A DNA stretch of 64,000 bases from IMG/VR virus record IMGVR_UViG_3300028146_000009, positions 25,850 through 89,849 of that record, one strand, 5' to 3'. Below are positions 12,236 to 56,183 of this stretch, in pieces. Source of the DNA: a virus (Duplodnaviria; Heunggongvirae; Uroviricota; Caudoviricetes). Made by a program: the position numbers and the translations under genes. Positions within the stretch are counted from its first letter, which is position 1. Each line of letters opens with the position of its first letter. The notes beneath the pieces were generated by a model. The model saw only the letters and a list, made by a program, of their open reading frames with translations, was not told the DNA's origin and did not search any database.

Positions 12236-12286
12236 CTAAAATCCTATGAAAACCTTACTAATTAGTTGTTAAAATCACTACTTAAG

Positions 12287-12703
12287 CTAATTTTGCTGGA
12301 ATGCTATTATTCGCAAAGAATATTGCTGCCCGGCTTGCAAACCAGTAACTGATTGAATATTAAAGATATTATTAGCTTGAACTCCTGAGACCATAACTCC
12401 ACCACTGGGATAAGTTGCTGAATTTGTTCGATTTGTGGCCCGGCCAACTATTACAAAATCAACATTAGTTGTGGTATTTAATTTAAAAGCAGTGGCCTGA
12501 ACTGGTTTTCCGGTAGAATCTACAGTCACTAAAACATCAGAAACTGTAGCTAAAAAATTATCCCGAATTGTAAGATTATTATTTAAAGCATTATAAAGAA
12601 CACTAACTCCATTATTTAAAGATAAAGAAAGTTGTGCTACTAAACTTTGGAACTGTTTAGTATAATCTGTTGAAATTATTTGTTTCCAAGAAGGCAAGCG
12701 CAT
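12287..12703 (-). CDS. structural protein (hypothetical)
   Basis: 138 aa, directly downstream of and coupled to the giant fibre gene. Confidence 0.4.
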   Translation of the reverse strand: MRLPSWKQIISTDYTKQFQSLVAQLSLSLNNGVSVLYNALNNNLTIRDNFLATVSDVLVTVDSTGKPVQATAFKLNTTTNVDFVIVGRATNRTNSATYPSGGVMVSGVQANNIFNIQSVTGLQAGQQYSLRIIAFQQN

Positions 12704-15700
12704 TATCTATAGACCCTTGAACTTTGTGTATTTTCGCCAACCACTACAACGCCTTGAAGTGACCATTTTTCACGCGCAACTTGAGAACCAAACTGTATGT
12801 TAAGAAATCTGCAGCGCTGAGCATTTCTAGGAACATAGGTTCTAAAAGGTGCTGAGTTTCCAGCTCCGCCAAAAAATCCGTAGCCAAATCCTGGGATATT
12901 AAATTGTCCATTAACTGGCGCAGGAAATCCCGTGTAACCAAAAATTCCATTCCCCGTTCCAAAAACAGGCACAGCAGTAAACGCCGGTAATAAATCACTA
13001 GCAAAACTAAGAACAGCTGAAGTAAAATCTTTTTGTTCAAAAAATAGCAAAGATTCTCTAAAATGTTTAAAACTAAGTGCATCTCCCATATCTTGCGGGG
13101 TGTACTGAATAAGTGTAGGAATCGCTTTAAAGATCGTAATAGGCCCTTGGATGAATGGTAAAGTGAGATTTAAGGTAATTGTCTTAGTTGCAAGGTTTAC
13201 ATTCGTTATAATGGCTTCCTGAAGCGTATTATAGGTAATTAATTGGTATCTCTTAAAAGCGGTACCTGGATCTTGATTTAAAGTATTTACAACTCCATTA
13301 AAACTAGCCTCAACATCTAAGAAATCTTCATTATTAACAATATAAACAATATTAGGAATCCATTCACCTTGAGTTCCAGCAACTGTCACATGAACGGGAA
13401 CTGTAAAGGTATTAGGGGTTAAAACTGTTACGGTTTTTAATCCATCAATAGACGGTGTAGAATTTGATCCGCTGATTAAAATTTGCTGCCCAGAAATTAA
13501 TCCATGACCCGGGGAAGTAATAACAGTAGGATTTGCTGCGGAAATTGCAGTAATTGCCATCATTCCATTTACTGAAACATTTACTGGAATTGAAAAAGTT
13601 GTCGAACTTATGACAGTAACCTGATAAACACCATCAATTGAAGGCGTGGAATTTGATCCAGTAATTGTAATACTTCGGCCAGTGGTAAGTCCATGGGGAA
13701 CTGAGGTCGTTAAAACTGTAGGACTTGTGGGGGTAACATTTACTATTTCAAAAGTTCCATTAATCGCTTCATATTGAGTATAATCAGATCCAGGAAAAGC
13801 ACCAGGCTGAGAAAGTCTACCGGGATCAGTTGCAATTTTTGCAATTAAAGCATCTAGTTTAAGCCGCGCATCATCACCTTCAACCATTGTTAAAATTGAG
13901 GAATAACTATGGGTGGCCCCTAAAGATCCAGCAGTTGTAACTCTAACGGGTATTGAAAAGGTATTAGCACTTAAAACTGTTACAACTTGAAGTCCATCGA
14001 TAGAAGGTACTGAATTAGAACCCGTAATATCAATAATTTCACCAGTTGTAAATCCATGATTAATATTAGTAGTTATAATCGTAGGATTTGCTGCTGAAAT
14101 ATTTGTAATTTTAAGACTTAAAGCTGTATCTGAATCTAAAACTGATAATAATGAATTATAATTAAAAACAGTTAAAGTTTGATCCTGAGTAATTACATCT
14201 CCAACTGCAGCTTCTGTAATATTTTGAAGAATTATTTTATTTCCAATTAAATTAGTGGGAGTAATTTCTTGAATAAATTCACGATCTGCATAATCCGTTC
14301 GATCAAAATTTTTACGTTCTTGTTCTAAAAAATTTGTGTCCCCAGCGCCTAAATATTGTCTATCATCGGCAGCATTAATTACGCCGCAATTATCAGTTTT
14401 TGCAAAAGTTGTCCAAGTATTTGTTAAAGTAGAATACCTATAAGCAACTGTTGCATATACATCATCAAAAGCAGAAACCGTATAAGTAGTGTAAGAATTA
14501 TCTGATTCATAACCTATGCCCCAAGTGGCGGATAAAAAGTTTGTGTATTGTGGAGTTGCTTTGGGAAGAATGTCAACGTCAATTGGTCGCGAAATAATAT
14601 TTACGCCAGATTCAGAAGTTGAAGTAATTCCTTGAGTGGTCCATCCATAAATTAAATTATTAGAAACATCCAAAGAATCGGGCGCTAAAAGAATGCAACT
14701 TAAATCAAAAAGTGCTAAATTAAAAGGTGCAACTTCTCCAGAAATTCTATAAAGCCCGTCAGATTTATAAACAAATAAACTGTCGCGCAATGGAAAAATA
14801 CGAAGAATCGGCTGATCTTGAGCGCCAACATCAATAAAATTCACTAATGGAACTGCTTCAGGCTGGAGAATTTTTGAATAATAGATTCTATTAGGTTTTG
14901 ATAAATTTGTAGCGGTTAAAGTGTCAACTAAAGTGCTTAAAGCTCCAGTAGTCCCAGCAATGGTAACATTTACCGGAATAGAAAATGTAGTAGGACTAAT
15001 GTAAGTAATATTGTATAAACCGTTAATAGACGGTGTAGAATTGGAGCCACTGATTACCACCTGTTCATTATTAGATAAATCATGGGGAGTGCTGGTAGTC
15101 ACAACTGTTGGATTTGTAGCTGTATTTCCACTTATAAAAATCTGAGGACTAATATTTGGATTAAAACTAGCACCAACTGCATCACTACTTCCTAAAATAG
15201 AAAATGCTGGATCACCAATAGCTCGACCTTGAAGTTCAATTTGTCCGGGAACTGATTGAACATCGGATAAATTAAAAGCACTGACAATTCCATTTGGTTG
15301 AGAATTAATAACATTTATCAGACTCTGGGCCGTTTCATTTACAGCAACGGCGGGGCTAATAGAATTTGATAATAAAACTTGTTGCTGAGAAGCATTTTGT
15401 CCCGCACCTTGTTGGGTAACTAAAATTGAAAATCCTGAAGTGCCAGCAGTTGCATCAGTTGTAACGCCTTCACCAACTGTAGTGACTGTAATAACATTTG
15501 TTGAAACTGTAGAAGTAAAATCTAAAATTAAAGAATCAATTACATTGTTTGTTTTTTGAGCAACAGTATTAGCAGAATCACCTATATTAATATTTATAGC
15601 AATGCCAGTTTTTCCGGAAACCATTGGATCAGTTCCAGAACCACTAACTATATACCAAAAATAATATTGATTTAAATCATCGGCGGAATTTAAAGTAAAA

Positions 15701-18102: not shown

Positions 18103-18127
18103 AAGTCATAACCTATTGAAATCATTA

Positions 18128-20561: not shown

Positions 20562-20792
20562 TTATTTAGTATAAGTATTTTGAGTAGAACCCGTACCAGA
20601 AGTTGTAATCGTAGGCGCGGTATCCCTTACGGTAACCTGCACATTACATTGCAAAGTTCCAGCTTCAAGGGCGCTTAAATAAAATTTGCAACCTTCAAGG
20701 GTTTCATTAGTTTTAGTTGGAAATTGAGCTTTTCCATTCAAATCACCAATTGTTTGATCTGGAATAGTCATAACTACGCAAAGAACTGCCAT
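20562..20792 (-). CDS. hypothetical protein
   Basis: 76 aa. RBS AAGGAG. TTTAACAACT motif 28 nt upstream. Confidence 0.35.
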   Translation of the reverse strand: MAVLCVVMTIPDQTIGDLNGKAQFPTKTNETLEGCKFYLSALEAGTLQCNVQVTVRDTAPTITTSGTGSTQNTYTK

Positions 20793-20842
20793 GGGATCTC
20801 CTTAAATTAATTCAATATAAGTTGTTAAATCATTCATTTTAT

Positions 20843-26634: not shown

Positions 26635-27126
26635 TTAACTATTTAGAACTGCAAGTGCTCTGAAATTTATCGTTCCCTGATGGCCAGTTCCAGAAATTGA
26701 GGTTGTAGAAAATTGAAGTTGACCAACATCTGAAACAGTAAAAGTAATATCAGCACCGCTTGAGCTAGAACTTGCGAATTCATCAGTAATTTGCCATAAA
26801 TTCCCAGGACTCTGAGTAGGATCATAATTTAGAATTAAAATACCAGATTGACTGACTTTTGTGGAATTTGTAGATCTTTGCACGCCGTAAAAAATGATAC
26901 TTCCTTGAACCGCTGAAACTGGAAATTCTAAATTAGGAATAGGTACATTTGTATTAACATTTGAAGTCATTACAAAATTTTGGGGAGGAATATCAAAAGG
27001 CCCAGCAGAAATTGTGAGAGCTTCTGCAATTAATTCAATAGCTTGAATTATTGAACTCGACCAGTTTGGCGACGTTCCACTATCGGGCACCGATACATTG
27101 ATTCCGTTTATATTGATTATAGGCAT
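26635..27126 (-). CDS. hypothetical structural protein
   Basis: 163 aa. TTTAACAACT motif 30 nt upstream and a 7-bp stem hairpin in the 5'UTR. Confidence 0.4.
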   Translation of the reverse strand: MPIININGINVSVPDSGTSPNWSSSIIQAIELIAEALTISAGPFDIPPQNFVMTSNVNTNVPIPNLEFPVSAVQGSIIFYGVQRSTNSTKVSQSGILILNYDPTQSPGNLWQITDEFASSSSSGADITFTVSDVGQLQFSTTSISGTGHQGTINFRALAVLNS

Positions 27127-27194
27127 TTAAATCCTTGCAAGAAGATTACAAGGATAGTTGTTAAATGAGATAAATACAGGAAAGGCTTAGATTT

Positions 27195-28738: not shown

Positions 28739-28936
28739 ATGAAATCTGGATGGAAAATAGAATTTCTAGATAATATTGAAAGAATAGATAAATGGAGGGA
28801 GACTGCTTATTGGGCCATTGGCATTATTGAAAACTATGAATCAGCGTTAGAAACAATTTCTTATATGGGTCCAGATGAAGCGGAAACTGAAGCAAAAATT
28901 GTAGCAAAAGAAGCTTTGGAGAAAAATAATGCCTGA
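28739..28936 (+). CDS. hypothetical protein (start at internal ATG with AAGGAG RBS)
   Basis: First gene after the strand switch. Overlaps the Pnk start. Confidence 0.35.
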   Translation: MKSGWKIEFLDNIERIDKWRETAYWAIGIIENYESALETISYMGPDEAETEAKIVAKEALEKNNA

Positions 28937-29798
28937 ACTAATTTTAATGGTCGGCCCCGCAGGTTCTGGAAAATCCACATTAAGCCGCACGTTTGGATCT
29001 AAATACGTAAGAATTAATCAAGATGAACTTGGAAAAGAAGGCCATAAAGAACAATTTAATCTTTCATTGCATGCTGGACATAATATAATTATTGATCGAA
29101 TGTCATTTTCCAAAGAACAACGAGCCCGTTATCTCGAGCCCGCAAAAAAAGCGGGCTATAAGTGCTACATTAAAGTGCTACATGAAAACTTCGATACATG
29201 CTTGGAAAGAATGAAGAAAAGAGAATTTCACCCTACTATAAAAGATGAAAAAACTGCTAAAAAGGTTTTAAACTTCTTTTTTTCAAAATATGAACGTCCA
29301 ACTCCAGATGAAGCTGATGAAATTGAATTTCGATATCCTGAAGGCGAAAAACCACTTGCTGTCATTTGCGATTTGGATGGAACTTTGTGTGATATTGATC
29401 ATAGACTTCATTTTATTCATCCGCCCGAAGGAGTTAAAAAAGATTGGAAAAGTTTTTCTGAATCTTTAAGAACCGACGGTATAAATCAATGGTGTAGAGA
29501 AATTTTATGGAATTTTGAAGATAAAGGAAAAAATATTGTATTATGTTCAGGAAGGTCTGATAATTATAAAGATTTAACTATTGATTGGTTAAATAATAAT
29601 CATATTTATTATACTAATCTTTTCATGCGACACCGAGATGATTATAGGAAAGATGACATTGTAAAAGAAGTGATTTTAGATTTTGAAATTCTAACTCGTT
29701 ATAGGCCGTATTTTTTTATAGATGATAGAAAATCAGTGGTGGACATGTGGCGTAAAAGAGGATATACTTGTCTTCAATGTGCAGATGGGAACTTTTAA
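28929..29798 (+). CDS. pseT: polynucleotide 5'-kinase/3'-phosphatase (T4 PseT-like)
   Basis: P-loop VGPAGSGKST. HAD-phosphatase DxDGT (AVICDLDGTLCD). C-terminal DDIVKEV...IDDRKSVVDMWRKRGYTCLQCADGNF is closely similar to the T4 Pnk C-terminus. Confidence 0.85.
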   Translation: MPELILMVGPAGSGKSTLSRTFGSKYVRINQDELGKEGHKEQFNLSLHAGHNIIIDRMSFSKEQRARYLEPAKKAGYKCYIKVLHENFDTCLERMKKREFHPTIKDEKTAKKVLNFFFSKYERPTPDEADEIEFRYPEGEKPLAVICDLDGTLCDIDHRLHFIHPPEGVKKDWKSFSESLRTDGINQWCREILWNFEDKGKNIVLCSGRSDNYKDLTIDWLNNNHIYYTNLFMRHRDDYRKDDIVKEVILDFEILTRYRPYFFIDDRKSVVDMWRKRGYTCLQCADGNF

Positions 29799-30590
29799 AT
29801 GATTAAAATTCAAACATTAGATTTAATTGAAAATAAAGAACATATTGTAAAATCTACAATTTTTCCCGATGGAACTTCACAAGTTTGGAAATTACCAGAA
29901 GAAATTATTAATTCATTAAATTTAAAAATAACTTGGAATTTCGAAGCTGAAAGAGAATTAATTGATCTTAGAAGTTTACGAGCATTAACTTTAAAAAATT
30001 CTCATGTTCATTGCCATATTCCATACTTACCTTATGCCCGGCAAGATAAAAATGTAACAAATAATACAAGCTTTAATTTAGATATTTTTGCTGAAATTTT
30101 AAATCTATGTCAATTTAATCTTATAACCGCAGTTGATGTTCATAATAAAGAACAAACTTATAAACTTATTAAAAATTTTCAAAATATCCCAGTAACTGAA
30201 CAAATTAATAAGTTAGCTGATGAATACGATGTTGTGTTATTTCCAGATAAAGGAGCAACTGAAAGATATAATGCTAAGATCACAAATTCAAAACAGTTTA
30301 CTTGTGTTAAAGAAAGAGACCAAACAACTGGTCAAATTTTAAATCATAAATGCCCAGAATTAGCATATCCAATGGTTAATTCAGTTTTAATTGTGGATGA
30401 TATTTGTGATGGCGGCGCAACTTTTATAAGTGTTGCTAAAATGTTAAAAGCCCAAAAAGATTTTAAAATAGGATTATTTGTAACTCATGGAATTTTTAGC
30501 AAAGGAAAACAAGTTTTACTTGACGCCGGCATTCAAAACATATACTGTACTAATAGTCTGCTAAAAAATGAAGATGGATTTAAAGTATGA
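29799..30590 (+). CDS. ribose-phosphate pyrophosphokinase-fold protein (Prs homolog; candidate ADP-ribose pyrophosphokinase Adps)
   Basis: FPDGTSQVW, VVLFPDKGATERY and PRPP-binding VLIVDDICDGGATF match Prs motifs. 263 aa, shorter than canonical Prs. Confidence 0.7.
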   Translation: MIKIQTLDLIENKEHIVKSTIFPDGTSQVWKLPEEIINSLNLKITWNFEAERELIDLRSLRALTLKNSHVHCHIPYLPYARQDKNVTNNTSFNLDIFAEILNLCQFNLITAVDVHNKEQTYKLIKNFQNIPVTEQINKLADEYDVVLFPDKGATERYNAKITNSKQFTCVKERDQTTGQILNHKCPELAYPMVNSVLIVDDICDGGATFISVAKMLKAQKDFKIGLFVTHGIFSKGKQVLLDAGIQNIYCTNSLLKNEDGFKV

Positions 30591-31321
30591 AAACACAAAA
30601 AGACCTTATTGATTTTTTTAATGGAGTAGATACAAAAAACTCATCAATTACTCCTGAACAAAAGGCATTCCTCCAATCTATAGGTAGATATCATCCATCT
30701 ATTACTCAACAAGAAATGAATGAAATTACTAATGCGTTTTCTGGGAATTTAGCAGGTCATGATGTTAGAATTGGATATTATGGAGGAATGGCAAGTATGG
30801 CTAATTCTAAGCAATTACCTAGGGTTCAAGCCGCAACTCCTTTAAAATCAGGTATTAAATACGTAAAAATGTCACTTTTTGATGCACCTAATGGATCAGT
30901 TCTAGTGCATGCTTGTAATGCCCAAGGTGTTTGGGGATCTGGAATTGCTAAAGAATTTAAATCAGTATTTCCAAAAGCTTTTGATGAATACAATAATTAT
31001 TGTAATATGAATTTACCATATCATTCAGTTGGCACAACTTTAATTACAAAGCCTGAAAATTCATACCGAGTTGGATGTTTAATCACTTCTTCTGATTTCG
31101 GTGCCCGATTAAATGCAGAACAATTAATTCTAACGCATACTAAACACGCACTAGATAAATTAGGTGAAATGTGTAATGATAATACAATTTACTCAAATAA
31201 ATTTAATAGTGGATTTTTTAAAGTTCCTTGGGAAAAAACTGAGAAACTTATTAATGATTTTGTTAAAAAATATAACCGAGTATGGGTCATTTGTGATCCA
31301 GACTTACAGGAGAAAAAATAA
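30587..31321 (+). CDS. macro-domain-like protein (ADP-ribose binding/processing)
   Basis: VLVHACNAQGVWGSGIAKEF and GTTLIT resemble the macro motifs VNAANxxLxxGGGVxxAI and GxAxIT. Confidence 0.4.
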   Translation: MKTQKDLIDFFNGVDTKNSSITPEQKAFLQSIGRYHPSITQQEMNEITNAFSGNLAGHDVRIGYYGGMASMANSKQLPRVQAATPLKSGIKYVKMSLFDAPNGSVLVHACNAQGVWGSGIAKEFKSVFPKAFDEYNNYCNMNLPYHSVGTTLITKPENSYRVGCLITSSDFGARLNAEQLILTHTKHALDKLGEMCNDNTIYSNKFNSGFFKVPWEKTEKLINDFVKKYNRVWVICDPDLQEKK

Positions 31322-32683: not shown

Positions 32684-32724
32684 GAAATAAACAAATTTTA
32701 GAAATGTCTACAAATGGAGAAAAA

Positions 32725-34212: not shown

Positions 34213-34235
34213 TTTATAATCTTAAGGAGATTAAA

Positions 34236-37191: not shown

Positions 37192-37229
37192 GATAAAAAA
37201 TTAGGGACTGCAAAAATACAATCCCTAAT
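37192..37229 (-). terminator. rho-independent terminator after major capsid gene
   Basis: ATTAGGGA-14nt-TCCCTAAT stem, followed by TTTTTTATCTT on the minus strand. Confidence 0.6.
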
Positions 37230-37240
37230 CTTGTAACTAC

Positions 37241-38497
37241 TTAATTACTGTTAACAATATTGAACAAAACAGTGTTCCGACCAGGCGCACTTGTAAACAA
37301 GGCTTGGTCTGACCAAAGACGCAATTCGTAGCCCGCAGCATCCGACAAATCTCTAAAGAACTCATCACCTTGTGACGGTCGTTTAAAGGTAACATCAGAG
37401 CTACCAACACGGCACCATTCATCCATAGCAAGTACGAATGCATAACCTTGTTTAATATAAATAGATGCTTCGATTTCAATAGCACCGGTTAAAGTATTAA
37501 ACACAAGTTTTTCAGAACCGTTTTCAGCAACTGATACTTTATAGCTACCATCGTATTTACGAAGAGCAGCTTGATCAGACATCATATTTGTCCAACCGCG
37601 AGGATTACAGTAACAAACGGCTTTACCGTCCATACCTTTTTCCATTGCACGTTCAGTGGCTTGAGTAATTTTTGTAAAGCTCAAAGCACCTGATTGAGCA
37701 TCGTATTGGTTACCACGGAAAAGGTTGAATTGAGCGGTATCGATATTAAACAATAAACCTGAGGTCATTGTTAAAATTTTGTGGATACCAGGGAATTCAT
37801 TACCAAAAGCACCTTTATGCCAGATAACATCTGTAGCAACAACACCTGGAATAGCACTTACAGTCGTAATGGTTTGCGCCAAAAAGTCAACTGAAGCTAC
37901 CGTAGAAGTTCCACGGCTAACTGTGCCTGCGGCGTTACGGATTTCAATTGGCATTCCTTCAGCACCGGCCCAAATACCAGGAGCCCATTCGGCAGTGGTA
38001 ATCGTTAAAAGAGTTCCAGCAGCGGCAGAAACCGTTGCATAACCCATTTGACCGTAAAGAAGTTCGATTTCGAGTTTCTTAGTAACTGAACGAAGCATAT
38101 TTGAAACGAGGTATTTTGTACCGTCTTCAAAAGCTTTGGCAGTTCCTTGAGCCGCGCGACTTGCAGCGGTATAACCAAGAACTGAACGGAGAACCAAGGG
38201 GTTACCACGAACTTCAGCATCTTTAGTTTGACCGGCAATCGCAGGATTCAAATTAAAAGCATCATCAGTGCTGTTCGCAAAGGTAACGCCATGTTCCATT
38301 CCAAGAATAACAGGCTGGTGATATAAATTACCAGGTTGTTTATCTTTGGGAAGGAAAGGGATTTTATTGAGCAATTTAACTCCATCAGGAATTAATTGTT
38401 CTAATTTATTTGCATAAGTTTCTTTAAAAAAGCCATTCAGATTCCCAACTTCATTTCCTGGGGTTCCGAACGTATTTGCACTTTGACCTAAAGCCAT
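37241..38497 (-). CDS. putative major capsid protein
   Basis: 418 aa. Followed by a strong terminator and preceded by decoration-like and scaffold-like genes. The call rests on position and size only. Confidence 0.5.
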   Translation of the reverse strand: MALGQSANTFGTPGNEVGNLNGFFKETYANKLEQLIPDGVKLLNKIPFLPKDKQPGNLYHQPVILGMEHGVTFANSTDDAFNLNPAIAGQTKDAEVRGNPLVLRSVLGYTAASRAAQGTAKAFEDGTKYLVSNMLRSVTKKLEIELLYGQMGYATVSAAAGTLLTITTAEWAPGIWAGAEGMPIEIRNAAGTVSRGTSTVASVDFLAQTITTVSAIPGVVATDVIWHKGAFGNEFPGIHKILTMTSGLLFNIDTAQFNLFRGNQYDAQSGALSFTKITQATERAMEKGMDGKAVCYCNPRGWTNMMSDQAALRKYDGSYKVSVAENGSEKLVFNTLTGAIEIEASIYIKQGYAFVLAMDEWCRVGSSDVTFKRPSQGDEFFRDLSDAAGYELRLWSDQALFTSAPGRNTVLFNIVNSN

Positions 38498-38517: not shown

Positions 38518-38856
38518 TTATTGTTTAGTTGTGTAGCGAACGATCAAAACGTCGTTAGCTGCAAGTGAGGACAAACCAGCGATTTCAATTGCACCTAAAT
38601 CATTAGGCGGTCCAACCGTCAATGAAGTAGAATCTACAATAGAGATGCTAGATTGTTGAAATTGAGTAACTAAGTTTGAGCTATCGACTTTTACCGAAGC
38701 TAAATAAACTGCAGTTACCGGTTCATAAACCAGTACGAAACAATTTCCGCCTGAAATTACGTATGAACCATTATCAGAACCGCGAATAGCCAATTCTTCA
38801 ACCTTGAGGCTTTGATATTGGGTATTGGCGTTTTTTGGATAAAATCCATCTGCCAT
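38518..38856 (-). CDS. head-proximal small protein (decoration-like), short paralog
   Basis: 112 aa. N- and C-terminal similarity to 39149..39760 (MADGFYPKN...LKVEELAIRGSD / ...VKVDSSN...ISIVDS...AANDVLIVRY). Confidence 0.45.
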   Translation of the reverse strand: MADGFYPKNANTQYQSLKVEELAIRGSDNGSYVISGGNCFVLVYEPVTAVYLASVKVDSSNLVTQFQQSSISIVDSTSLTVGPPNDLGAIEIAGLSSLAANDVLIVRYTTKQ

Positions 38857-38904: not shown

Positions 38905-39091
38905 CAACTCATAAGTATGTATTTCTTCGGAGATACTCTTAAGTCCAGAAGGATATTAAGGGTCTATAGAAGAATAATCGCTTAATCGTCTAGTATTAGT
39001 TGTTAAATTGATTGGTTTTTTGGGTTCCACATGGATATCTCTAGCTTATAATTGGACGTAAGAGTGCTAGCTGCCCAATGTTTTATATTAA

Positions 39092-39120
39092 TAAAAAACC
39101 CGGCCATTTTTAGACCGGGC
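39092..39120 (-). terminator. rho-independent terminator
   Basis: CCCGG-loop-CCGGG hairpin followed by a T6 run on the minus strand, downstream of 39149..39760. Confidence 0.5.
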
Positions 39121-39148: not shown

Positions 39149-39760
39149 TTAAACTGGGGTAGGAGTTGGGGTATTTAAATTTTCCTGAGTTCTATACTTC
39201 AATGAAATCACATCATTAGCAGCTAAAGCGCCAGGATAACCACTCAAAAGAATTGAACTTTGATCACTAACGCTGGTTCTGGTATTAAAATTAAAGCCAG
39301 TTAAAGCACCCTGGGAGTCAACAATTGAAATGCTCGCCTGATTAAAATCATAAACAGAATTAGACGCATCGACTTTTACAGCGGCGGTATAAACGGCATT
39401 TACAGGTTCGCCAATTAAAACTGTAATATTTTGAGTTGCAAAAGAACCGGCAGTTCCAGCAACTGAAACGTTTACAGGAACTGAGAACGTCGTAGCACTA
39501 ATAACTGTTACAACTTGAGCACCATTAATACTAGGGGTTGAATTAGAACCTGAGATCGTAATGGTTTGTCCCGTTTGTAAACCATGGGGAGTAGCAGTCG
39601 TAACAACCGTGGGATTAGCCGCCGTATTGCCAGTAATCGTAATAGGGGTTCCAGCTACCGACGTAAACATATTAAAATCAGAACCACGAATAAATAAAGA
39701 TTCTACTTTAAGTGTTTGTTTCGCGGGCAACTGATTTTTTGGATCAAAACCAATAGACAT
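39149..39760 (-). CDS. decoration-like protein, long paralog with inserted ISGSNSTPSING module
   Basis: 203 aa. Same termini as 38518..38856, plus an inserted TPHGLQTGQTITISGSNSTPSINGAQVVTVISATTFSVPVNV. TTTAACAACT motif 42 nt upstream. Confidence 0.5.
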   Translation of the reverse strand: MSIGFDPKNQLPAKQTLKVESLFIRGSDFNMFTSVAGTPITITGNTAANPTVVTTATPHGLQTGQTITISGSNSTPSINGAQVVTVISATTFSVPVNVSVAGTAGSFATQNITVLIGEPVNAVYTAAVKVDASNSVYDFNQASISIVDSQGALTGFNFNTRTSVSDQSSILLSGYPGALAANDVISLKYRTQENLNTPTPTPV

Positions 39761-39815
39761 ATTTAAAAGCTCCTAATAATTAGTTGAAACGTTTCGATAT
39801 TAGTTGTTAAATTGA

Positions 39816-40363: not shown

Positions 40364-41410
40364 TTACCAGGGTTTAAAGAATTGTTTATAAGTAACTTTC
40401 TTTTCTTCTTTTTTCTCAGGTTCCGCGACTTTTCCGGTGCTAGGGGCTTTTCCAGGAGCTTTCACTGCTGGATTTTGATTAGCTGCAGTTTTAACGCGTT
40501 TTACAGCGGTTTTACGAAGTCTATCAACAATTTCCTTGCCAAAGAATTCTTCCAAAGCATCTTCAGGAAGAGCAAGTGCATGTTCTCTATAATCATTTTT
40601 TAATTCTTCAGCAACAAATGGGATAATATCATTAATAGAAACTTCTTTATTAGCATTTACGGCTAATTGGGCATAATCAAGAATCTTTTTTACGGCAGCA
40701 GGGCTGCGGGGAATTTTATTAGAATTTAAAGCATTTGTAATCTGATCGTCAAATTCACGCTCATATTTATCAGCCATTGCCTGGCGTTCTTGCTCTTCGC
40801 GGGTTTTTGATTCATTTTCTTGTTTTTCACGTAATTGGCGTAATTCTTCTTTAGCAGCTTCTAAAGCTAATTGTTCGGGAGATTTCTGACTATTTTCAAT
40901 CTCAGTTTCAATATACTTCTTTATAGCATCTTTTACATCTACACCGAACGCTGGGTCAGATAGAACCTTAAAAGGATCTTCTTTAATTTGTTTTGCTAAC
41001 TTTTGAACATCTTTTTCTAATTCTGAGTAGGATTGAGCCCGTTTTTGACCCATTTTAGCCATTTGAAGCTCACGAGTTAAATATTCTTTAATTTTAGGGT
41101 CATCAGGCAATTCAAATGGAAGATTTTCAACATAATCCTGGCCATCGATTTTAAGTGTAAGAGATTTAAGGGTTTTTTTAGCTTCAACTTTAGCAGCTTT
41201 AGGGGCATTAGGATCATTTAAAACCGCCTGAGCAGCTGCAGCCTGTTTTGGAGCTGTTTGTGCAACAGGAGTCGGATTAGGAGCTTTGGGAGCGTTTTGC
41301 GCATGAATCTGAGCTGCGGTCGCCTGACCGGCTGCACTGGTACCTAATGTAGCTGTTGAAGGGGCTGAAGATGTTGGGGCTGAGGGAGTTGATGAATTTG
41401 AATCGGCCAT
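40364..41410 (-). CDS. scaffolding-like protein (Ala/Lys/Glu-rich helical)
   Basis: A/P/T-rich N-terminus then a long charged helical region. Start set at MADSNSS, the internal Met of ORF 40364..41488. Confidence 0.45.
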   Translation of the reverse strand: MADSNSSTPSAPTSSAPSTATLGTSAAGQATAAQIHAQNAPKAPNPTPVAQTAPKQAAAAQAVLNDPNAPKAAKVEAKKTLKSLTLKIDGQDYVENLPFELPDDPKIKEYLTRELQMAKMGQKRAQSYSELEKDVQKLAKQIKEDPFKVLSDPAFGVDVKDAIKKYIETEIENSQKSPEQLALEAAKEELRQLREKQENESKTREEQERQAMADKYEREFDDQITNALNSNKIPRSPAAVKKILDYAQLAVNANKEVSINDIIPFVAEELKNDYREHALALPEDALEEFFGKEIVDRLRKTAVKRVKTAANQNPAVKAPGKAPSTGKVAEPEKKEEKKVTYKQFFKPW

Positions 41411-41632
41411 AAAAAATAATCCTTTTAAAAAGTCCCAAAATGGGATATTATTTATAAAGTGATCGTTTCGGGAATCGAAATGGATCATAATAAGTTGTTA
41501 AAGGTTTAAAAATGAAAATATTAATTCAAATTTTAAAAGTTATTTTTAGTAAAACTGAATCTGATTTTCCAGAATTAGGTAAATTACCTAATAGCATTAA
41601 AAAATGATTCCCCATGACAACTAAAGAAAAAA

Positions 41633-41663
41633 GCGCCTAGATTAATAGGCGCGTGTTTTTTTA
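41633..41663. terminator. bidirectional rho-independent terminator
   Basis: GCGCCTA-gattaa-TAGGCGC hairpin flanked by A6 upstream and T7 downstream. It terminates 41661..42095 on the minus strand. Confidence 0.65.
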
Positions 41664-42095
41664 TTCTTCCCCAACAATTGCAGTCAAATAATCCATAATA
41701 CTAGGCCAAATATTTGTGGCAAAATCTGATGGAAGTGGGGCAGTGTCTGTGCTACTAGTCGCCATTGAAAAATCAGAGGCAGCATTTGTATCTTCATTAG
41801 CGGCGCGAGTTAATAAACTTGTAATATACTGAATATCACTTACAACGGTCTGAAGTGCGGCAGTCATTTCGGAAGCAAAATCTTCAGGTGGATCAGTAAA
41901 TGTATTAGTTTCTGGATCATAAGTTGAACCAATTTGAGGTTGTGGACTAAATGAATTATTAGTATAATCAATATAATAATCATATCCAGGTTCAAGACTT
42001 TCAGCAGATGCAAGATCATCATAAACTGCCATAATTTGAACAGTTTCCACATCATCTCCATTTACACCAATAATTGCAACATCAATAGTAGGCAT
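41661..42095 (-). CDS. acidic hypothetical protein
   Basis: 144 aa, D/E-rich. Confidence 0.4.
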   Translation of the reverse strand: MPTIDVAIIGVNGDDVETVQIMAVYDDLASAESLEPGYDYYIDYTNNSFSPQPQIGSTYDPETNTFTDPPEDFASEMTAALQTVVSDIQYITSLLTRAANEDTNAASDFSMATSSTDTAPLPSDFATNIWPSIMDYLTAIVGEE

Positions 42096-42104: not shown

Positions 42105-42617
42105 CTATAAAATTTGTTTAATATTTAATTTTTTTAATAAATTATAAAGATCTTTTGGACTAATAGTTGCTGGATTTAAATTAAAATCTTCTGGATCGAT
42201 TTCATTTAAACATCTATAAACTATTTCAGAACAAAATGCACTTGATAATTTATCTCGAAGTAAGTTGTTAATATTTATTTTAAACTTACTTAAAATTTCA
42301 TCTATACCGAGCAGTAAAACTCCTAATAAACTGTAAGGAATTCCAACATTATCAACGTAATATTGTTTTAAAGAAATAAATTTTTGATCATCAATTTCCA
42401 ACTGAAATTCATAAATAGGTTGAGTAGTGGAAAGAAAAAGTGGTTCACCAATAAAACCTACACCGCGCCAATTTGATTGATAAATTATAGTTCTATCTAA
42501 TTCTTGGGAATAAAATTTTATATAGGTATGATCAAAAGGAGCATTGTCAATTTTTTCAATTAATTCACCATGCAATGAAAATTTCTTTGGATGAGAAAAT
42601 CCAATTACTAAATTCAT
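42105..42617 (-). CDS. hypothetical protein (start trimmed to ATGA-coupled internal Met)
   Basis: ORF 42105..42731 overlaps its upstream neighbour. The internal MNLVIGF start gives an ATGA junction. Confidence 0.4.
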   Translation of the reverse strand: MNLVIGFSHPKKFSLHGELIEKIDNAPFDHTYIKFYSQELDRTIIYQSNWRGVGFIGEPLFLSTTQPIYEFQLEIDDQKFISLKQYYVDNVGIPYSLLGVLLLGIDEILSKFKININNLLRDKLSSAFCSEIVYRCLNEIDPEDFNLNPATISPKDLYNLLKKLNIKQIL

Positions 42618-44408: not shown

Positions 44409-45392
44409 TTACTCAACCCACTCAACTATTATCATTCCATTACTACCATTTCCACCATTTCCACCAGCTCCACCATTACCTCCAGTAGTAGAACCTCCGC
44501 CTCCGCCACCTCCGCCGCCACCTCCGCCACCACCTCGACCATTTAATCCATTAACTCCAGAAGATGCAGAAACTCCATTAGCTCCAGCACCTGCACTATT
44601 ACCATTTCCACCTTTTCCTGCAGCTCCGCCTTGGCCCCCAGAAGGCGCACCTTGGCCATAAATTGAATATTCATCAGAAGTACCACCAGCACCTCCGCCA
44701 GAGCCCGAACCACCACCACCTTGCGTGCCGCCAGATCCTGTACCACCGGTACCGCCCGCAGTTCCACCAGCGGTAGTGACATTGTATAATAATGAGATTG
44801 AGCTTACACCTGCTGCACCAGTTCCACCGGTTGCCGTTGCATTTCCCGCACCAGCAGCGCCGCTATTACCTGGATTAATTGCAGTTAATCCATAGGAAGT
44901 TCCAACTGTTCCAGTACTACCTGCAGTTCCGCCAGTTCCAGATGCTCCAGCTCCACCACCACCTGGAGTTCCAGATGCACCACTACCACCTATGCCTGAT
45001 TTACCAAATGAAACAACTGCTCCAAAACTTGATACTGCTCCATTTCCACCATTACTAGCAGAAGTTCCGGCAGTTCCAGCACCTGATGCTCCAGTTCCAC
45101 CAGAACCCGCACCACCCCCTGAACCACCACCGCCAATTGTTATTGTTATAGAGGAATTTGGAGTCACATTTAAATATGCAGTTTGAAAACCACAGGAACC
45201 ACCACCTGGTCCACCACGTCCCCCACCACCTCCACCGCCAGTAGCTCCACCAAATCCAGAACCACCACCACCGCCACCAGCGCCTCCGCCAGAACCTGGG
45301 CGACCATAAACCTTTACTTGAGTAATACCAGAAGGAACTACAAATGTTCCAGAAGCTGCAAATATTTTTGTAACAATTCTTGATTGACTCAT
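44409..45392 (-). CDS. glycine-rich structural protein (paralog B)
   Basis: VTKIFAASGTFVVPSGITQVKVYGRPGSGGG ... GSNGMIIVEWVE. Same architecture as paralog A. Confidence 0.5.
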   Translation of the reverse strand: MSQSRIVTKIFAASGTFVVPSGITQVKVYGRPGSGGGAGGGGGGSGFGGATGGGGGGGRGGPGGGSCGFQTAYLNVTPNSSITITIGGGGSGGGAGSGGTGASGAGTAGTSASNGGNGAVSSFGAVVSFGKSGIGGSGASGTPGGGGAGASGTGGTAGSTGTVGTSYGLTAINPGNSGAAGAGNATATGGTGAAGVSSISLLYNVTTAGGTAGGTGGTGSGGTQGGGGSGSGGGAGGTSDEYSIYGQGAPSGGQGGAAGKGGNGNSAGAGANGVSASSGVNGLNGRGGGGGGGGGGGGGGSTTGGNGGAGGNGGNGSNGMIIVEWVE

Positions 45393-46042
45393 TATTTTAA
45401 ATCCTGGTTTGGATATACATATGAAATTTTTCTAGTTTTAATATCCATAACCCTTACTCGTCCTTTATTTGGGGCTGTTTTTCCTTTTTGAAATCCAATT
45501 TTTAATAATCTTTCTTTTTCTTTAGTAGAAGCTGGAATTCCTTTTTTAGGACTAGGTTTATTTCTTTTTTTCCCTTTATTATAAGTGTTACCTTTTAATG
45601 AATTAGAAATTTTTTGCCTAGTTTCTAAACTAACTTCATGCCCTATCAAAGATTTGCTTATTTTTTGTTTATGCTCATGATTTAATGGTTTATTTTTTAA
45701 TTTTTCAGATCTTTTATTTAAAGTCTCTATAGAAGGTAAATAACCACCATGATCTCTATTATATCCATTGGGATTTAAACAATTAAATGTCTTTATATAA
45801 TAAATTTCTTTTTCAATTAATTCTTGTTTGGTTAATACTGTTTCTAAAATTTCAAAGGTAAAATTTTCAATACCGTATTGAATCATCTTTTGAACAATAA
45901 GATGATGCGTACCTTTTTTATTTTTAACCATTGACTTATATGTTGAAAATCTAGCTTTAAATCCGACTGTTGTAATACCGATATAAATTTTTCCATTAAT
46001 TTTACAAGTAATCCTATAAACCTGCATCATGCCATCCACCAT
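45392..46042 (-). mobile_element. GIY-YIG homing endonuclease gene with NUMOD3-like DNA-binding repeats
   Basis: VYRITCKINGKIYIGITT, YGIENF, LNPNGYN. C-terminal HKQKISKSLIGH and TRQKISNSLKGN repeats. Overlaps the fibre 3' end by 16 nt. Confidence 0.7.
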
Positions 46043-50091: not shown

Positions 50092-50094
50092 AAC

Positions 50095-50295
50095 TTACAC
50101 CACTATTCCTTTAAAGTTTTTTATATTTTTATCTTGTTCATCTATATATTTTCTTGGATCTTTTGAAGCTTTATGCATTGAAAGACTAATTCCTTTTAAT
50201 GCTTTTCGCATCTTACCGAATTTCTTAGGTTTTTCATCCGCGTAGGAATCTTTAAGAATTGGTTTCATTGAAGTAAAAGTATTTGCAGAATCCAT
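50095..50295 (-). CDS. hypothetical small basic protein
   Basis: 66 aa. Confidence 0.35.
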   Translation of the reverse strand: MDSANTFTSMKPILKDSYADEKPKKFGKMRKALKGISLSMHKASKDPRKYIDEQDKNIKNFKGIVV

Positions 50296-50322
50296 TTAAA
50301 CCTCTTATTATTAAGTTATTAA

Positions 50323-53300
50323 TTAAGGCTTCACGTTGCCCATTTGAGATTGTTGCAGCGCTGGGTTCGCCAAGAGCCCAGCCTTCACGACCGCAGGCTT
50401 TGGAAGACCTTCATTTTTGATCCCTGGCCCGGTCATTTGATTCACACCTTTAGGAGCGCCCGCGCCAGGTTGCAACATAGGTGCTGCTGGAGCGCCTTGT
50501 AATGAAGCCTGGGGGGGATTCTGAGGTGGTGGAGGATTTGGTTGTCCACCGGGGGGATTAGGATTATTAGGCTGAAGTGGAGGTAAGGGTTGTTCTCCGC
50601 GCATTTGTAAAAGGGCGGGATCCGTTTGTCTTAAAGCATTTAAATGAGCTTCAATGTGATCCATAACATTACTAATAAAGGCAGGATCATTCCTTAAATC
50701 AGGATCTGCTAAAACTGCTGAATGTTCATCAATATGAACACTATGTTTATCCATAGGACTTACAACTGGATTAATGCCATCTAATAATTGCTCATTTTCT
50801 TTCTTAATAAGCATTAAATCATCAGTTTCACCTTCATACATAGCTTCAATTCGGCCAGTATTAATAACTTGGAAATATTGCTGAGGATTCTTAATAATTT
50901 TCATTTGCATCATTTGTTCTGCCATTTGAACTCGGCCTGCAATTGTATTATGAGTTACAGTAAAATCACCCAAAACAAAATGGGGTTCTTCAACTAAAGT
51001 GAAACCATAATAAGTTCCTTCACCAACTAAAGTGACTTTAATTCCATAATTAAGCCAATCACGACTTTTTTCTTTTTTCTGAACTTGTTTTCTAGGAAGT
51101 TTACAAGGAATTTCCCAAGTATTTCCACCAATTGTTATTTTATTAACTTCTCCTGTAATAGGGCCAGTTAATTTACTAGAACTTGTTGAAACTTTTTTGG
51201 AAGTAGTTCTAAATCCTAAAGATTCAGATAAAAATACAACTTCTTGTGAAAGCCGATCATTTTTTTGAGTAAAAACATAAGTTTCATCAATTCTATAACC
51301 ATCGGTATCAATTAAACCTGCCAATAGATCCAAACGATCTTTACGAGAAGAAAGCAAATAACATGATGGAATATGTTTATTATTAATTAATTCCATAGAT
51401 CTTAATTCATTCATAAAAGAATTTCGATCAGAAGGACCATGGGATTTACCAGAAGTAATGTGATAGTTTTTAGATTTATTAGGTTGTCGATTTTCTTCAA
51501 CTCTAACTTCTAATCCCAATGAATGACCATAATTAATCCAAGCATCAGCTAATTCATTATCCATGGTTGTCAATGCGGTTGTTCTAGAGGTTCCATCACC
51601 AAGCCAAGCCCCTAAAATATAAGCAGGAACTTCGAATTTCTTTTTATCAAATTCAACTCCAGTTTTAAACCCTTGTAACAATCTTTTATGTCTATCGGGA
51701 AGTTTTAAATAATCTCTAACTGTAATATCTAAAATATCACCTTTTTTAACATCATAACGATAATCATCCGAACAATATTTTAATGTTAAAATATGACTTT
51801 CATTACAACCATATTTAATTTTTCTATTAGGATCTTTAGATTCAACTTCATACATCATTTCCTGGCCACTATTAACATTTGAAACTGTCCGAGGAATTGA
51901 ATCTGGTCCCATAACTAAATCATTAATTTTAACATCTTGAACCAGTTTAATAGATCCATCGTACATTAAAACCGGTGTATCCTTAGCCAAACACCGAGCT
52001 AAAGGATTACCCATATCAACTACAACGCGATTAACTGCTGAGATTTTTTCTCCAGTAAATTCTTTAGTTAAATTTCTATTATTTTTTCCAACTAAAGTAA
52101 TCATTTTAGGAGTATTTGCAAAATCTTTAAGAATTTGAATAGTACCAGTGCCCACTTCTTCAATTAATTTTACATAATTTGCTTGAAGACCTGAAATAAA
52201 TTGAAGGGCTTGAGATTGAACTAAAGCTAAGGCAGTTCCTGATTTTAAACTCGCTTCAGGATTACCGCGTGCGACTGAATTTACACCTGAAATAGTTTCA
52301 GAAGCCTGAATTAACATATCAAGGAATTTAAATACTTCAGCGGGAGTTTGAGTTAAATTTAAAGCTTCGGGTTTTGCTTTAGATTTAATAACATTCATTC
52401 CACCTTTGAGGCTTGCAACTTGTATATCAGCATCTTCTGGCATCCAAATATTTTGCACACCAAAAGTGTTTTGATTAGTCATAATTGTGGAATAAAGAGC
52501 ATTGATACCTTCCTGAATAGGATAAATATCAAACATTGGACTATAACCATAAGGTGTTCCTAAAATATCATTAGGAGTAATTCTATAAACGGGAATTTCA
52601 CGATAAGGCATTTTAGCATCTAAAAATACACATTCAGCATCACAAAATAACATATAACGGCCATTAGGCATACTTTCTGTAACTTTATGAAAAAATTCAT
52701 AAATTGCAATATCATCAGTATCATCATTAGACCAAACTGCAATTCTATAGACACTGGATTGATTTTTAGGTTTCATTCCGCGAATTTTTTCAGCAAATTC
52801 TGGATATTTAGCCATTAAATCATATTTATTAATCCATTGGCGGGTAAGAATCCAATCATTATTCCAAGACTCTTTAGTTCCATCAACAACAACATCTAAA
52901 GGACTTAAAGTACAATATTCTAATTCACCATCACGAATAGGTTGATTTGTTTCAGGATCAACATCATAAATCTCGCCAGCAGTTGCATTCCAGGCAAGTT
53001 TTACATATCCCTGGCCCATAACAATAGCCATTTCGGTGGCACTTTTAATACAATCTTCTAACTTTTTCTCGCGCATGTAATAATCAAGAATTTGATTAGC
53101 AAGAATTGTTTGGGCATAAGATTTATAGTCAGTATTAATAGCCCTGGCATCCATTGTAGGCCTGGAAGAAGTGATCATTGTATAAATATGTTGGGCTAAG
53201 TTCCTATAATGATTAATAGGAATTTGAGTTAATTCTCCTTGTTCCCCAGTAAAATTAACCCGGTGACCATTACCCACGTAATCATTAAGATAAGCTCCAT

Positions 53301-53475
53301 AATAGAATCTCCATTGATTTTGCAGTTTGTCTAAATAATTATTGCTGCGCAGAACATTAAAAAATGTATCAGCTTTCCCAAGTAAAATACTAGCTGCATC
53401 GTTACAGTCTTTAGCAGCAAAGTAGGAATCAGTGCTTCCAACTACCGTATCATCTGGACCATGAATATCTGCCAT
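50323..53475 (-). CDS. portal protein precursor interrupted by an intein (exteins about 701 aa)
   Basis: Immediately downstream of terminase. Carries an in-frame Hint/LAGLIDADG element. Proline-rich C-terminus. Confidence 0.6.
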   Translation of the reverse strand: MADIHGPDDTVVGSTDSYFAAKDCNDAASILLGKADTFFNVLRSNNYLDKLQNQWRFYYGAYLNDYVGNGHRVNFTGEQGELTQIPINHYRNLAQHIYTMITSSRPTMDARAINTDYKSYAQTILANQILDYYMREKKLEDCIKSATEMAIVMGQGYVKLAWNATAGEIYDVDPETNQPIRDGELEYCTLSPLDVVVDGTKESWNNDWILTRQWINKYDLMAKYPEFAEKIRGMKPKNQSSVYRIAVWSNDDTDDIAIYEFFHKVTESMPNGRYMLFCDAECVFLDAKMPYREIPVYRITPNDILGTPYGYSPMFDIYPIQEGINALYSTIMTNQNTFGVQNIWMPEDADIQVASLKGGMNVIKSKAKPEALNLTQTPAEVFKFLDMLIQASETISGVNSVARGNPEASLKSGTALALVQSQALQFISGLQANYVKLIEEVGTGTIQILKDFANTPKMITLVGKNNRNLTKEFTGEKISAVNRVVVDMGNPLARCLAKDTPVLMYDGSIKLVQDVKINDLVMGPDSIPRTVSNVNSGQEMMYEVESKDPNRKIKYGCNESHILTLKYCSDDYRYDVKKGDILDITVRDYLKLPDRHKRLLQGFKTGVEFDKKKFEVPAYILGAWLGDGTSRTTALTTMDNELADAWINYGHSLGLEVRVEENRQPNKSKNYHITSGKSHGPSDRNSFMNELRSMELINNKHIPSCYLLSSRKDRLDLLAGLIDTDGYRIDETYVFTQKNDRLSQEVVFLSESLGFRTTSKKVSTSSSKLTGPITGEVNKITIGGNTWEIPCKLPRKQVQKKEKSRDWLNYGIKVTLVGEGTYYGFTLVEEPHFVLGDFTVTHNTIAGRVQMAEQMMQMKIIKNPQQYFQVINTGRIEAMYEGETDDLMLIKKENEQLLDGINPVVSPMDKHSVHIDEHSAVLADPDLRNDPAFISNVMDHIEAHLNALRQTDPALLQMRGEQPLPPLQPNNPNPPGGQPNPPPPQNPPQASLQGAPAAPMLQPGAGAPKGVNQMTGPGIKNEGLPKPAVVKAGLLANPALQQSQMGNVKP
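50947..51993 (-). mobile_element. intein with double-motif LAGLIDADG homing endonuclease (aa 495-843 of portal ORF)
   Basis: N-terminal splice junction ...NPLAR/CLAKDTPVLMYDG. C-terminal junction ...GDFTVTHN/T. Two LAGLIDADG motifs, ILGAWLGDGTS and LLAGLIDTDGY. Confidence 0.75.
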
Positions 53476-55730: not shown

Positions 55731-56059
55731 TATTTAGCCTGACTAAAACCATTACGGGTAAGTGAATTAATCTTTAAAGCATTAATTTGTGCTTTAATAG
55801 ATTCAACTTCATTAACTCTTAATTCAAATTTTTGCACTGCTTCATTTAATTTTTTATCCAAAGAATTATTAGCTACTTCAATTTTTTTATCTAATTCTTG
55901 AATTTTAGAATCTGAATCTTTATACAGAAAAAAGCACGAAGCAGCAGCAAGCACTGCTAAAATGACAGCTTCTGGATAACTTACTGAAAAAATAAGGGCT
56001 TTAAGAAAATAGATACCAAAAAGAGATAACGGTAAATACTTGAGGTTTTTCTCTAACAT
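55730..56059 (-). CDS. membrane-anchored coiled-coil protein
   Basis: N-terminal TM LSLFGIYFLKALIFSVSYPEAVILAVLAAASCFF, then a coiled coil. Confidence 0.4.
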   Translation of the reverse strand: MLEKNLKYLPLSLFGIYFLKALIFSVSYPEAVILAVLAAASCFFLYKDSDSKIQELDKKIEVANNSLDKKLNEAVQKFELRVNEVESIKAQINALKINSLTRNGFSQAK

Positions 56060-56153
56060 TTTTACTCCTAATTGTTTAAAAAAATGTCCTATATTGCTGT
56101 AAACTGCTGGTTAGTAACCTATTGCCGTAAAAACGGCAGTCAGTATTAGCTCA

Positions 56154-56183
56154 TTGACAATATAAGTTGTTAAATGCTAAAAT
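56154..56183 (+). promoter_or_regulatory. sigma70-like promoter TTGACA-18-TAAAAT upstream of 56330..56725
   Basis: Consensus -35 at 56154-56159 and -10 at 56178-56183. The spacer contains the AGTTGTTAAA motif. Confidence 0.35.

Follow-up and report, generated by a model that had tools for sequence, protein, structure and literature searches.

The 64,000-nucleotide (nt) stretch of tailed-phage DNA analysed here (positions 25,850 to 89,849 of IMG/VR record IMGVR_UViG_3300028146_000009; hereafter, the window) is punctuated by copies of a short element, TTAACAACT, which most probably represents a phage-specific promoter class serving non-early genes, namely virion genes, lysis genes and one accessory operon, across a large clade of phages with genomes of ~85-90 kb. 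The element is non-random, strand-specific, intergenic and conserved across the clade, its orientation is coupled to that of the downstream gene, and it stands at a fixed spacing from leaderless gene starts. Its sequence features suggest that it behaves as a -10-type promoter lacking a -35 box. The phage family in question is abundant but has no cultured member, and nearly every gene in it is unannotated; the motif would provide a transcription map of this family, showing where operons begin, which blocks are early or late and which lysis genes are leaderless.

A preliminary description of the window had reported the 10-mer AGTTGTTAAA from seven intergenic sites, all in one orientation, and proposed that it is a late promoter. 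The seven exact copies are indeed present, at positions 12264, 20820, 27156, 38998, 39802, 41493 and 56165, all on the plus strand and none on the other, against an expectation of 0.52; none of 100 shuffled sequences yielded seven copies. All seven lie between called genes, as confirmed by the gene calls of the source contig (ENA contig ERZ27256753:k141_126350; 89,881 bp), in a window of which only ~6% is intergenic. The 41493 copy falls within the longest possible open reading frame (ORF; 40364-41488), yet upstream of the start assigned by the gene caller, 41410, which has an AAGGA ribosome-binding site. The 17-mer TTTAACAACTTATATTG is common to the copies at 20820 and 56165, as described, and the measured distances to the start codons (28, 27 and 29 nt in the three short cases; 41, 82, 105 and 141 nt in the rest) are close to those given earlier.

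With a relaxed pattern, the conserved core proved to be TAACAACT on the gene strand, usually preceded by T. Thus, the 10-mer is real but is not the conserved unit, and two intergenic copies had been missed. The core has 11 matches in the window, nine of them intergenic, and all nine are directed at a downstream gene. The two additional intergenic copies are located at 56203-56210 on the plus strand and 60474-60481 on the minus strand. The former lies 28 nt from the 56165 copy in the opposite orientation, facing plus-strand genes, so that the two form a back-to-back divergent pair. The two extra copies, including one on the plus strand, indicate that orientation follows the downstream gene rather than one DNA strand: the uniform orientation described previously holds for the original seven copies but not once the 56203 copy is included. 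The two intragenic matches (26066 and 42263, both on the minus strand) fit the chance expectation from base composition, ~2 per strand.

The pattern extends to the genome as a whole. We assembled a composite of 88,041 bp, ~98% of a genome of ~89.9 kb, from the window and two further loci, L008 and L022, the latter a near-identical phage from another sample. The source samples are listed as ENA ERZ27256753 and ERZ27256707 and JGI 3300024331. It contains 10 copies of TAACAACT on the minus strand and one on the plus strand. A genome-wide motif search had been set beforehand as a test of the promoter proposal; it revealed no copies in the ~46 kb of plus-strand early/replication blocks and no excess in coding regions. 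The plus-strand blocks encode, among others, a PDDEXK nuclease, ERF recombinase, DnaB-like helicase, split family-B DNA polymerase, RNA ligase and RecA-like protein, and the lysis, packaging, head and tail genes are on the minus strand, between 60467 and 4651.

No close relative of the phage was found in INPHARED. The nearest cultured relative is a Silvanigrella phage (31% identity in the large terminase and 29% in the head protein), which lacks the motif. Metagenomes, in turn, contain hundreds of protein clusters of the family, and we collected 159 related loci (1.6 Mb). Eighty of these (683 kb) are centred on the gene for a scaffold-like protein (40364-41410), which has more than 149 homologues; they were recovered in a metagenome scan with an alignment of the homologues and span protein identities of 31-80% and G+C contents of 31-46%. 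The other 79 (922 kb) are new loci retained from a terminase alignment search of IMG/VR that yielded at least 390 relatives. TAACAACT occurs 418 times on the gene strand of the 159 loci. In the scaffold-centred set, there are 216 gene-strand versus 20 opposite-strand copies, and 185 of the 216 (86%) are intergenic, compared to 8.3% of the DNA. The terminase-centred set contains 202 gene-strand and 77 opposite-strand copies; many of the latter are close to a gene-strand copy, being its divergent partner. The motif is kept at syntenic intergenic positions in the relatives, and the samples that carry the same 8-mer originate from soil, peat, freshwater, sediment and marine environments.

The consensus derived from 416 unique sites is wwT-TAACAACT-ATAwnT-R, in which the 6 nt after the 8-mer are rich in A/T. 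In coordinates relative to the transcription start deduced below, T is found at -15 in 79% of the sites, the 8-mer is invariant and is followed by A/T/A, T is found at -1 in 56%, and A or G at +1 in 76%. There is no conservation between -40 and -16, and strong conservation is limited to positions -15 to -7. A few lineages carry variant motifs, TTAATAACTATA in L177 and TTTTAACATTTAAWTATAGA in L172 and L174, and provide natural material for finding a co-varying reader protein. These lineages are represented by IMG/VR records IMGVR_UViG_3300044697_000009 (TTAATAACTATA) and IMGVR_UViG_3300020050_015887 (TTTTAACATTTAAWTATAGA).

Other explanations of the repeat itself were considered and rejected. 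A dispersed repeat or mobile element was ruled out given that the flanks of the copies are unrelated. A plus-strand extended -10 element (TGnTAAAnT) driving antisense RNA was ruled out because its last -10 position is not conserved and the orientation of the motif tracks the genes. TTAACA does not qualify as a -35 box, with no conservation 16-18 nt downstream and a start that would land past the ribosome-binding sites. Literature searches for the literal motif returned nothing but primer noise.

Divergent pairs and leaderless genes

The position of the motif relative to the transcription start is suggested by its divergent arrangements. We identified 37 unique back-to-back divergent pairs and no convergent ones. 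The gap within a pair ranges from -2 to 74 nt and is at most 7 nt in 14 of the 37; two pairs overlap as the palindrome AGTTGTTAACAACT (gap of -2 nt). In 34 of the 37 pairs, 4-9 nt separate the motif from the start codon of the divergent gene, and in 16 the distance is exactly 6 nt, the mode. Such spacing leaves no space for a Shine-Dalgarno sequence; the ordinary genes of this phage have clear AGGAG-type sites. The same tendency is seen at motif sites at large: an ORF-initial ATG is found 5-9 nt downstream of 14 of 221 motif sites versus 4 of 776 control 8-mers. In seven of the nine relatives tested, the divergent gene encodes a cell-wall peptidase of the Peptidase_M15/VanY type, often with an N-terminal zinc ribbon, which is likely to be the endolysin.

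The sixth position after the motif is most often T and the seventh mostly A or G, the usual -1/+1 signature. Together with the leaderless gene starts, this T(-1)/purine(+1) step places the start ~7 nt after the last T of the motif. We infer that transcription begins at this purine, so that TAACAACT would occupy positions from about -14 to -7.

Predicted transcription units in the window

The candidate promoter copies and terminators of the window are listed below by coordinates and strand, with untranslated regions abbreviated as UTR and protein lengths given in amino acids (aa).

56162..56174 (-): candidate promoter copy TTTAACAACTTAT, heading the operon from 56059 to ~41661; predicted start near 56158
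56202..56213 (+): its divergent partner copy, CTAACAACTTAT; a GTG 6 nt downstream opens the 38-aa zinc-ribbon ORF 56217-56333
41490..41502 (-): candidate promoter copy TTTAACAACTTAT, preceding the gene for the scaffold-like protein (40364-41410); 5' UTR predicted at ~76 nt
39799..39811 (-): candidate promoter copy TTTAACAACTAAT, upstream of the 203-aa gene 39149-39760
38995..39007 (-): candidate promoter copy TTTAACAACTAAT, followed by the genes for a 112-aa protein (38518-38856) and the major head protein (37241-38497); 5' UTR predicted at ~135 nt
27153..27165 (-): candidate promoter copy TTTAACAACTATC, preceding gene 26635-27126 (163 aa) and the genes of the tail-fibre block (666 and 988 aa)
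20817..20829 (-): candidate promoter copy TTTAACAACTTAT, upstream of 20562-20792, followed by genes for 253-aa, 537-aa SU10-adaptor-like, 1799-aa and 138-aa proteins
12261..12273 (-): candidate promoter copy TTTAACAACTAAT, upstream of the last late operon, 12235 to 4651 (544, 392, 895, 599 and 92 aa)
60471..60483 (-): variant copy TCTAACAACTATA, with the 167-aa ORF 59964-60467 opening at an ATG (60467) 6 nt further on; heads the operon from 60467 to 56711
42263..42270 (-): intragenic TAACAACT, 167 nt upstream of gene 41661-42095
50314..50322 (-): one-mismatch variant TTAATAACT of uncertain status, in the 27 nt that separate the portal gene from gene 50095-50295
41633..41652 (-): intrinsic terminator-like hairpin and T-run, closing the terminase-portal operon before the next motif copy
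39098..39120 (-): intrinsic terminator-like hairpin and T-run after the 203-aa gene, between the 39802 and 38998 units
37197..37232 (-): terminator-like hairpin after the major head protein gene

The genes served by the motif in the window include those for the large terminase, portal, head protein, tail fibre and SU10-adaptor-like protein. The preliminary description had assigned the downstream genes to the virion or late class, and for the virion and lysis genes this is borne out. One copy, however, heads a non-virion operon (60467 to 56711), so that 'non-early' is the safer designation.

The operon headed by the 56162..56174 copy contains three small ORFs and the genes for the large terminase, the intein-containing portal protein and a 1228-aa protein, among others. 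This copy is the same-strand member of a divergent pair that recurs ~0.8 kb upstream of the terminase gene in the relatives. On the other side of the pair, relatives carry a zinc-ribbon/Peptidase_M15 gene at the position of the 56202 copy; in the window, the short zinc-ribbon ORF (56217-56333, plus strand; CxxC...KCxxCGYC), which was not called by the gene caller, is followed by a DUF5675 gene (56330-56725, plus strand). In the relatives, the homologous zinc ribbon either has a small ORF of its own or forms a fusion with the M15 peptidase.

Conservation of individual copies is apparent elsewhere as well. Most of the 80 scaffold-centred loci have a TAACAACT copy 80-290 nt upstream of the scaffold-like homologue. 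In L070, the homologue of the 163-aa gene begins 6 nt after that locus's own motif copy, and syntenic minus-strand counterparts of the 12261 copy are present in L119 (18068) and L120 (18953). The 6-nt spacing of the 167-aa ORF is shared with L121, L124 and L126. As for the less typical sites, the 42263 copy could be an internal promoter or a chance match, and the variant of the 50314 site, TTAATAACTATA, is the one that stands in for the motif in the relative L177.

Motif copies tend to follow terminators. This is the case twice in the window, after terminators 41633-41652 and 39098-39120, and in the relatives a terminator-like hairpin ends at most 150 nt upstream of 25 of 203 sites versus ~3% expected. 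The 38995 copy lies ~90 nt past terminator 39098-39120, and its unit stops at terminator 37197-37232. A further terminator-like hairpin with a T-run (41433-41445, minus strand) separates the motif from the start codon of the scaffold-like gene, within the predicted 5' UTR, where it could be an attenuator or a 5' stabiliser.

A promoter scan found no correctly oriented sigma-70-like site at the seven copies. Such sites are present before some non-structural genes, at 28728-28700 (TTTACA-17-TATAAT), 56154-56183 and 37191-37162. Given these sites beside the motif copies, the genome appears to use two promoter classes. Searches for tRNA genes and for Rfam families yielded nothing.

Recognition of the element

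Sigma-70 promoters combine a -35 box, TTGACA, with a -10 box, TATAAT, at a spacing of 16-18 nt, and have A at -11 and T at -7. By contrast, nothing is conserved here between -40 and -16, and given the start placed as above, position -11 is an invariant C. This combination makes recognition by an unmodified sigma-70 holoenzyme unlikely, in agreement with the earlier statement that the element does not show sigma-70 architecture. We propose that the motif would be recognised at the DNA level as a -10-type element by the host multisubunit RNA polymerase, redirected by a phage specificity factor, which may be a very divergent sigma-like protein or another DNA-binding subunit. The factor would be made from the plus-strand early/middle genes, which themselves lack the motif. 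Intrinsic terminators would then punctuate the late block, with a motif copy restarting transcription after them, and the scaffold-like gene, the 203-aa gene and the head protein gene would form separate, probably highly expressed, units. An invariant element lacking a recognisable sigma factor or polymerase points to an undiscovered promoter-specificity factor, and the element itself is a compact candidate part for orthogonal gene expression.

Several observations weigh against this interpretation. The window's own copies read ACTAAT or ACTTAT, as opposed to ACTATA in the clade consensus, and a TAnnnT hexamer just past the core could move the true start a few nt downstream. The start site itself is deduced from leaderless gene starts and the pyrimidine/purine preference rather than from transcript 5' ends, and 'late' timing is deduced from gene content only. 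Above all, in the ~98% of the genome covered, comparison with Pfam, PHROGs and NCBIfam identified no sigma factor, gp55/gp33, extracytoplasmic function (ECF) sigma, T7-type or multisubunit polymerase, or known late activator. These family scans covered ~110 proteins, including two bulk scans of 77 small ORFs that were read from the best 25 families, so that weak matches may have escaped, and were complemented by precomputed Pfam matches for all called genes. The ~1.8 kb at one contig end outside this coverage corresponds to a stretch that, in L106, a relative at 48% identity (polymerase C-terminal fragment), contains only five ORFs of 57-111 aa. Hence, of the previous proposal of a phage-encoded sigma or activator driving late genes, the promoter part is supported, whereas the search for a gp55-like late sigma suggested at the time came back negative over this coverage and the phage-encoded factor can at present be put forward only as a deduction.

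The T4 late promoters, TATAAATA, are read by gp55 with gp33 and the gp45 clamp. Like these, the element described here would be a single short -10-type element with no -35 box, ending ~6-7 nt before the start, conserved throughout a lineage and placed before virion and lysis genes. The resemblance is, however, confined to architecture: the sequence (TTAACAACT, with C at -11) is unrelated, and no gp55 or gp33 homologue emerged from the scans. T7-group promoters are likewise contiguous, highly conserved and found repeatedly upstream of late genes; those of T7 and SP6 share with the clade consensus an ACTATA end, and here too the variants are specific to lineages. However, no RNA polymerase gene was found in the covered genome, conservation extends from about -15 to -7 rather than from -17 to +6 as in T7, and the start would lie 6-7 nt after ACT, not directly after TATA. 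In the Kuravirus group, the middle/late promoters of phiEco32/SU10, recognised by the ECF-type sigma gp36, consist of a contiguous element of ~10 nt, tAATGTATAtA, located 6-8 nt upstream of the transcription start (PMC4281155). The geometry predicted here is the same, with 34 of the 37 divergent genes starting 4-9 nt past the motif, and our phage has weak matches to the SU10-type portal and adaptor. Nevertheless, the sequence differs, no gene matches Sigma70_r2, Sigma70_r4 or ECF families, and the genomes are otherwise unrelated, without a megablast or tblastn link. The late promoters of AR9, AACA-(6N)-T-A/G(+1), are read by a non-virion multisubunit polymerase (PMC5312081). They share with our motif an AAC-containing block ~10 nt upstream of a T(-1)/purine(+1) start and the lack of a -35 box, but the spacing differs by one or two nt, and AR9 requires uracil-containing DNA and five polymerase subunit genes, to which nothing comparable was found here. 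Because the defining protein of each known system was not found, membership fails for the T4, phiEco32, T7 and AR9 systems alike. By analogy, the element is best described as working like a -10-only phage late promoter, closest in architecture to T4 late and phiEco32/SU10 gp36 promoters, and not as belonging to the T4 or phiEco32 system.

A more specific alternative does without any sigma-family reader: a clade-specific DNA-binding protein would confer promoter specificity on the host RNA polymerase or on some unrecognised enzyme. The strongest candidate is the following protein:

2946..3575 (+): 209-aa protein, candidate DNA-binding factor, among the last genes of the early/middle block

The position of this gene is kept in distant relatives. 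An AlphaFold model of the product (pLDDT 85.5) displays two winged-helix domains, and a fold search pointed to the RFX / P4 origin-binding fold; the profile of the family, which comprises 960 clusters at 50% identity, found no match among PDB sequences, and only the fold search answered. The 209-aa protein might act with its neighbour (3738-4379, plus strand), a conserved, lysine-rich (basic) 213-aa protein that was matched nowhere; the two genes form a conserved pair. PDB sequence searches with 372-, 213-, 167- and 208-aa proteins also produced no match. The winged-helix genes of the variant-motif lineages were not recovered in the IMG/VR scans, which gave two loci. If correct, this scenario would reveal a new class of phage transcription-specificity factor, but we consider it unlikely.

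It is less likely still that the motif is the promoter of a phage RNA polymerase too divergent to be recognised, in which case one of the large uncharacterised proteins (895, 1228 or 1799 aa) could be a cryptic enzyme of the single-subunit or two-barrel type. The contiguous element without a -35 box, its ACTATA-like end recalling T7-group promoters, and the presence of several large proteins without a family match are all compatible with this scenario, as are the lineage variants in L177 and in L172/L174, given that polymerases and their promoters co-evolve in this way. However, PF00940, like every other polymerase family, had no match on any called gene (~88 of 89.9 kb), and regular-expression scans found no T7 motif B/C patterns in the large proteins. 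The DxDGD and D-x-D-x-D polymerase motifs were absent from all window proteins except a tail fibre and from L005 and L008, which also leaves no counterpart there of the split beta/beta-prime-like subunits of phiKZ and AR9 with their DFDGD. Furthermore, every large unassigned protein is encoded in the virion block, itself downstream of the motif, and would be made too late to start late transcription, whereas the early/middle blocks encode no unassigned protein larger than ~370 aa; the late units also end at terminators composed of a hairpin and a T-run.

Alternatively, the motif might act in RNA, directing processing by an endoribonuclease of host or phage origin or binding a translational regulator within long polycistronic transcripts, with cleavage a few nt further on generating leaderless or short-leader mRNAs. 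The divergent pairs are hard to reconcile with this explanation: in the 14 pairs no more than 7 nt apart, including the two that overlap as AGTTGTTAACAACT, each RNA would need a promoter inside the other unit. No conserved candidate promoter is present upstream of the motif, copies follow terminators four times more often than expected by chance, the predicted start shows a pyrimidine/purine step, and the Rfam search was empty. Thus, we regard an RNA-level function as very improbable, even though four copies sit in short gaps (50-68 nt) without an upstream terminator, where read-through RNA would hold them, ~13% of the sites precede unusually stable hairpins, and the plus-strand sigma-70-like site at 56154-56183 would put the 56203 copy in a 5' UTR.

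Finally, recognition by the unmodified host holoenzyme with a host sigma, either an alternative one or an unusual housekeeping sigma of an unknown host group, would require no phage factor and accords with the failure to find a phage sigma and with the distance to the nearest cultured relative, the Silvanigrella phage at 29-31% identity, but it is the least credible possibility, given that the 8-mer is invariant over soil, peat, freshwater, sediment and marine phages of 31-46% G+C with probably diverse hosts, that the same genome has near-consensus sigma-70-like sites for other genes, that the Silvanigrella phage lacks the motif and that, to our knowledge, the motif fits no consensus of the sigma-54, sigma-28, sigma-32 or ECF classes.

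A second repeat array and other genomic features

The region at the head of the accessory operon contains a second repeat, (T)GTTACTA(T/G)A, with nine plus-strand copies in one orientation at 60007-60575 and one inverted copy at 61194-61200. The 167-aa ORF encloses seven of the nine copies, which fall in two different frames, and the other two lie beyond it, indicating that the constraint is on the DNA. The array is common to near relatives, and other lineages carry other repeats at this location (TTGCAT in 16 copies, GCCGCTATT in 25). It resembles an iteron array particular to the lineage and may be a replication origin located within a gene, as in phage lambda, whose origin lies inside gene O. 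An interpretation of the array as sigma-70 early promoters was dropped: several copies read GTTACTAGA, which contains no -10 hexamer, and they have no -35 in common. TGTTA occurs both in the array sites and in the reverse complement of the motif, AGTTGTTAA, so that one protein family might read both, and the 209-aa winged-helix protein could equally bind the GTTACTA array.

The 167-aa ORF (59964-60467, minus strand) was not called by the gene caller of the contig; tblastn identified 17 relatives at 24-37% identity. It is apparently leaderless, with its start 6 nt after the motif copy. The N-terminus appears GIY-YIG-like by eye, and there is no Pfam or PHROGs match. The adjacent gene (59603-59971, minus strand) encodes a 122-aa RF-1-domain protein (ArfB/peptidyl-tRNA-hydrolase-like). 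Its closest relatives are found in unrelated phages without the motif.

The minus-strand late block is interrupted by a plus-strand island (28739-36370) that relatives lack. The island carries genes for a polynucleotide kinase/phosphatase, PRPP synthetase, a macro-domain protein, an SPFH/Band-7 protein and nicotinamide phosphoribosyltransferase (NAMPT, NAD salvage). The virion block also contains two GIY-YIG homing-endonuclease-like genes (45392-46042 and 36367-37155, both on the minus strand), the second of which has its own sigma-70-like site, TTGATT-18-TATGAT, at 37191-37162. The portal gene (50323-53475, minus strand; 1050 aa) is invaded by an intein, with Hom_end_hint and LAGLIDADG homing-endonuclease domains in a P22/SU10-type portal.

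Upstream of the window, in L022 (8351-10708), the family-B DNA polymerase is split into ORFs of 507, 45 and 235 aa, and L106 shows the same split; a dGTP-diphosphohydrolase-like domain and an RNA ligase are encoded nearby in L022. The independent assemblies L022, L008 and L106 (positions 1-1200) all stop ~1-2 kb upstream of the PDDEXK nuclease gene, which suggests that the genome has fixed physical ends there.

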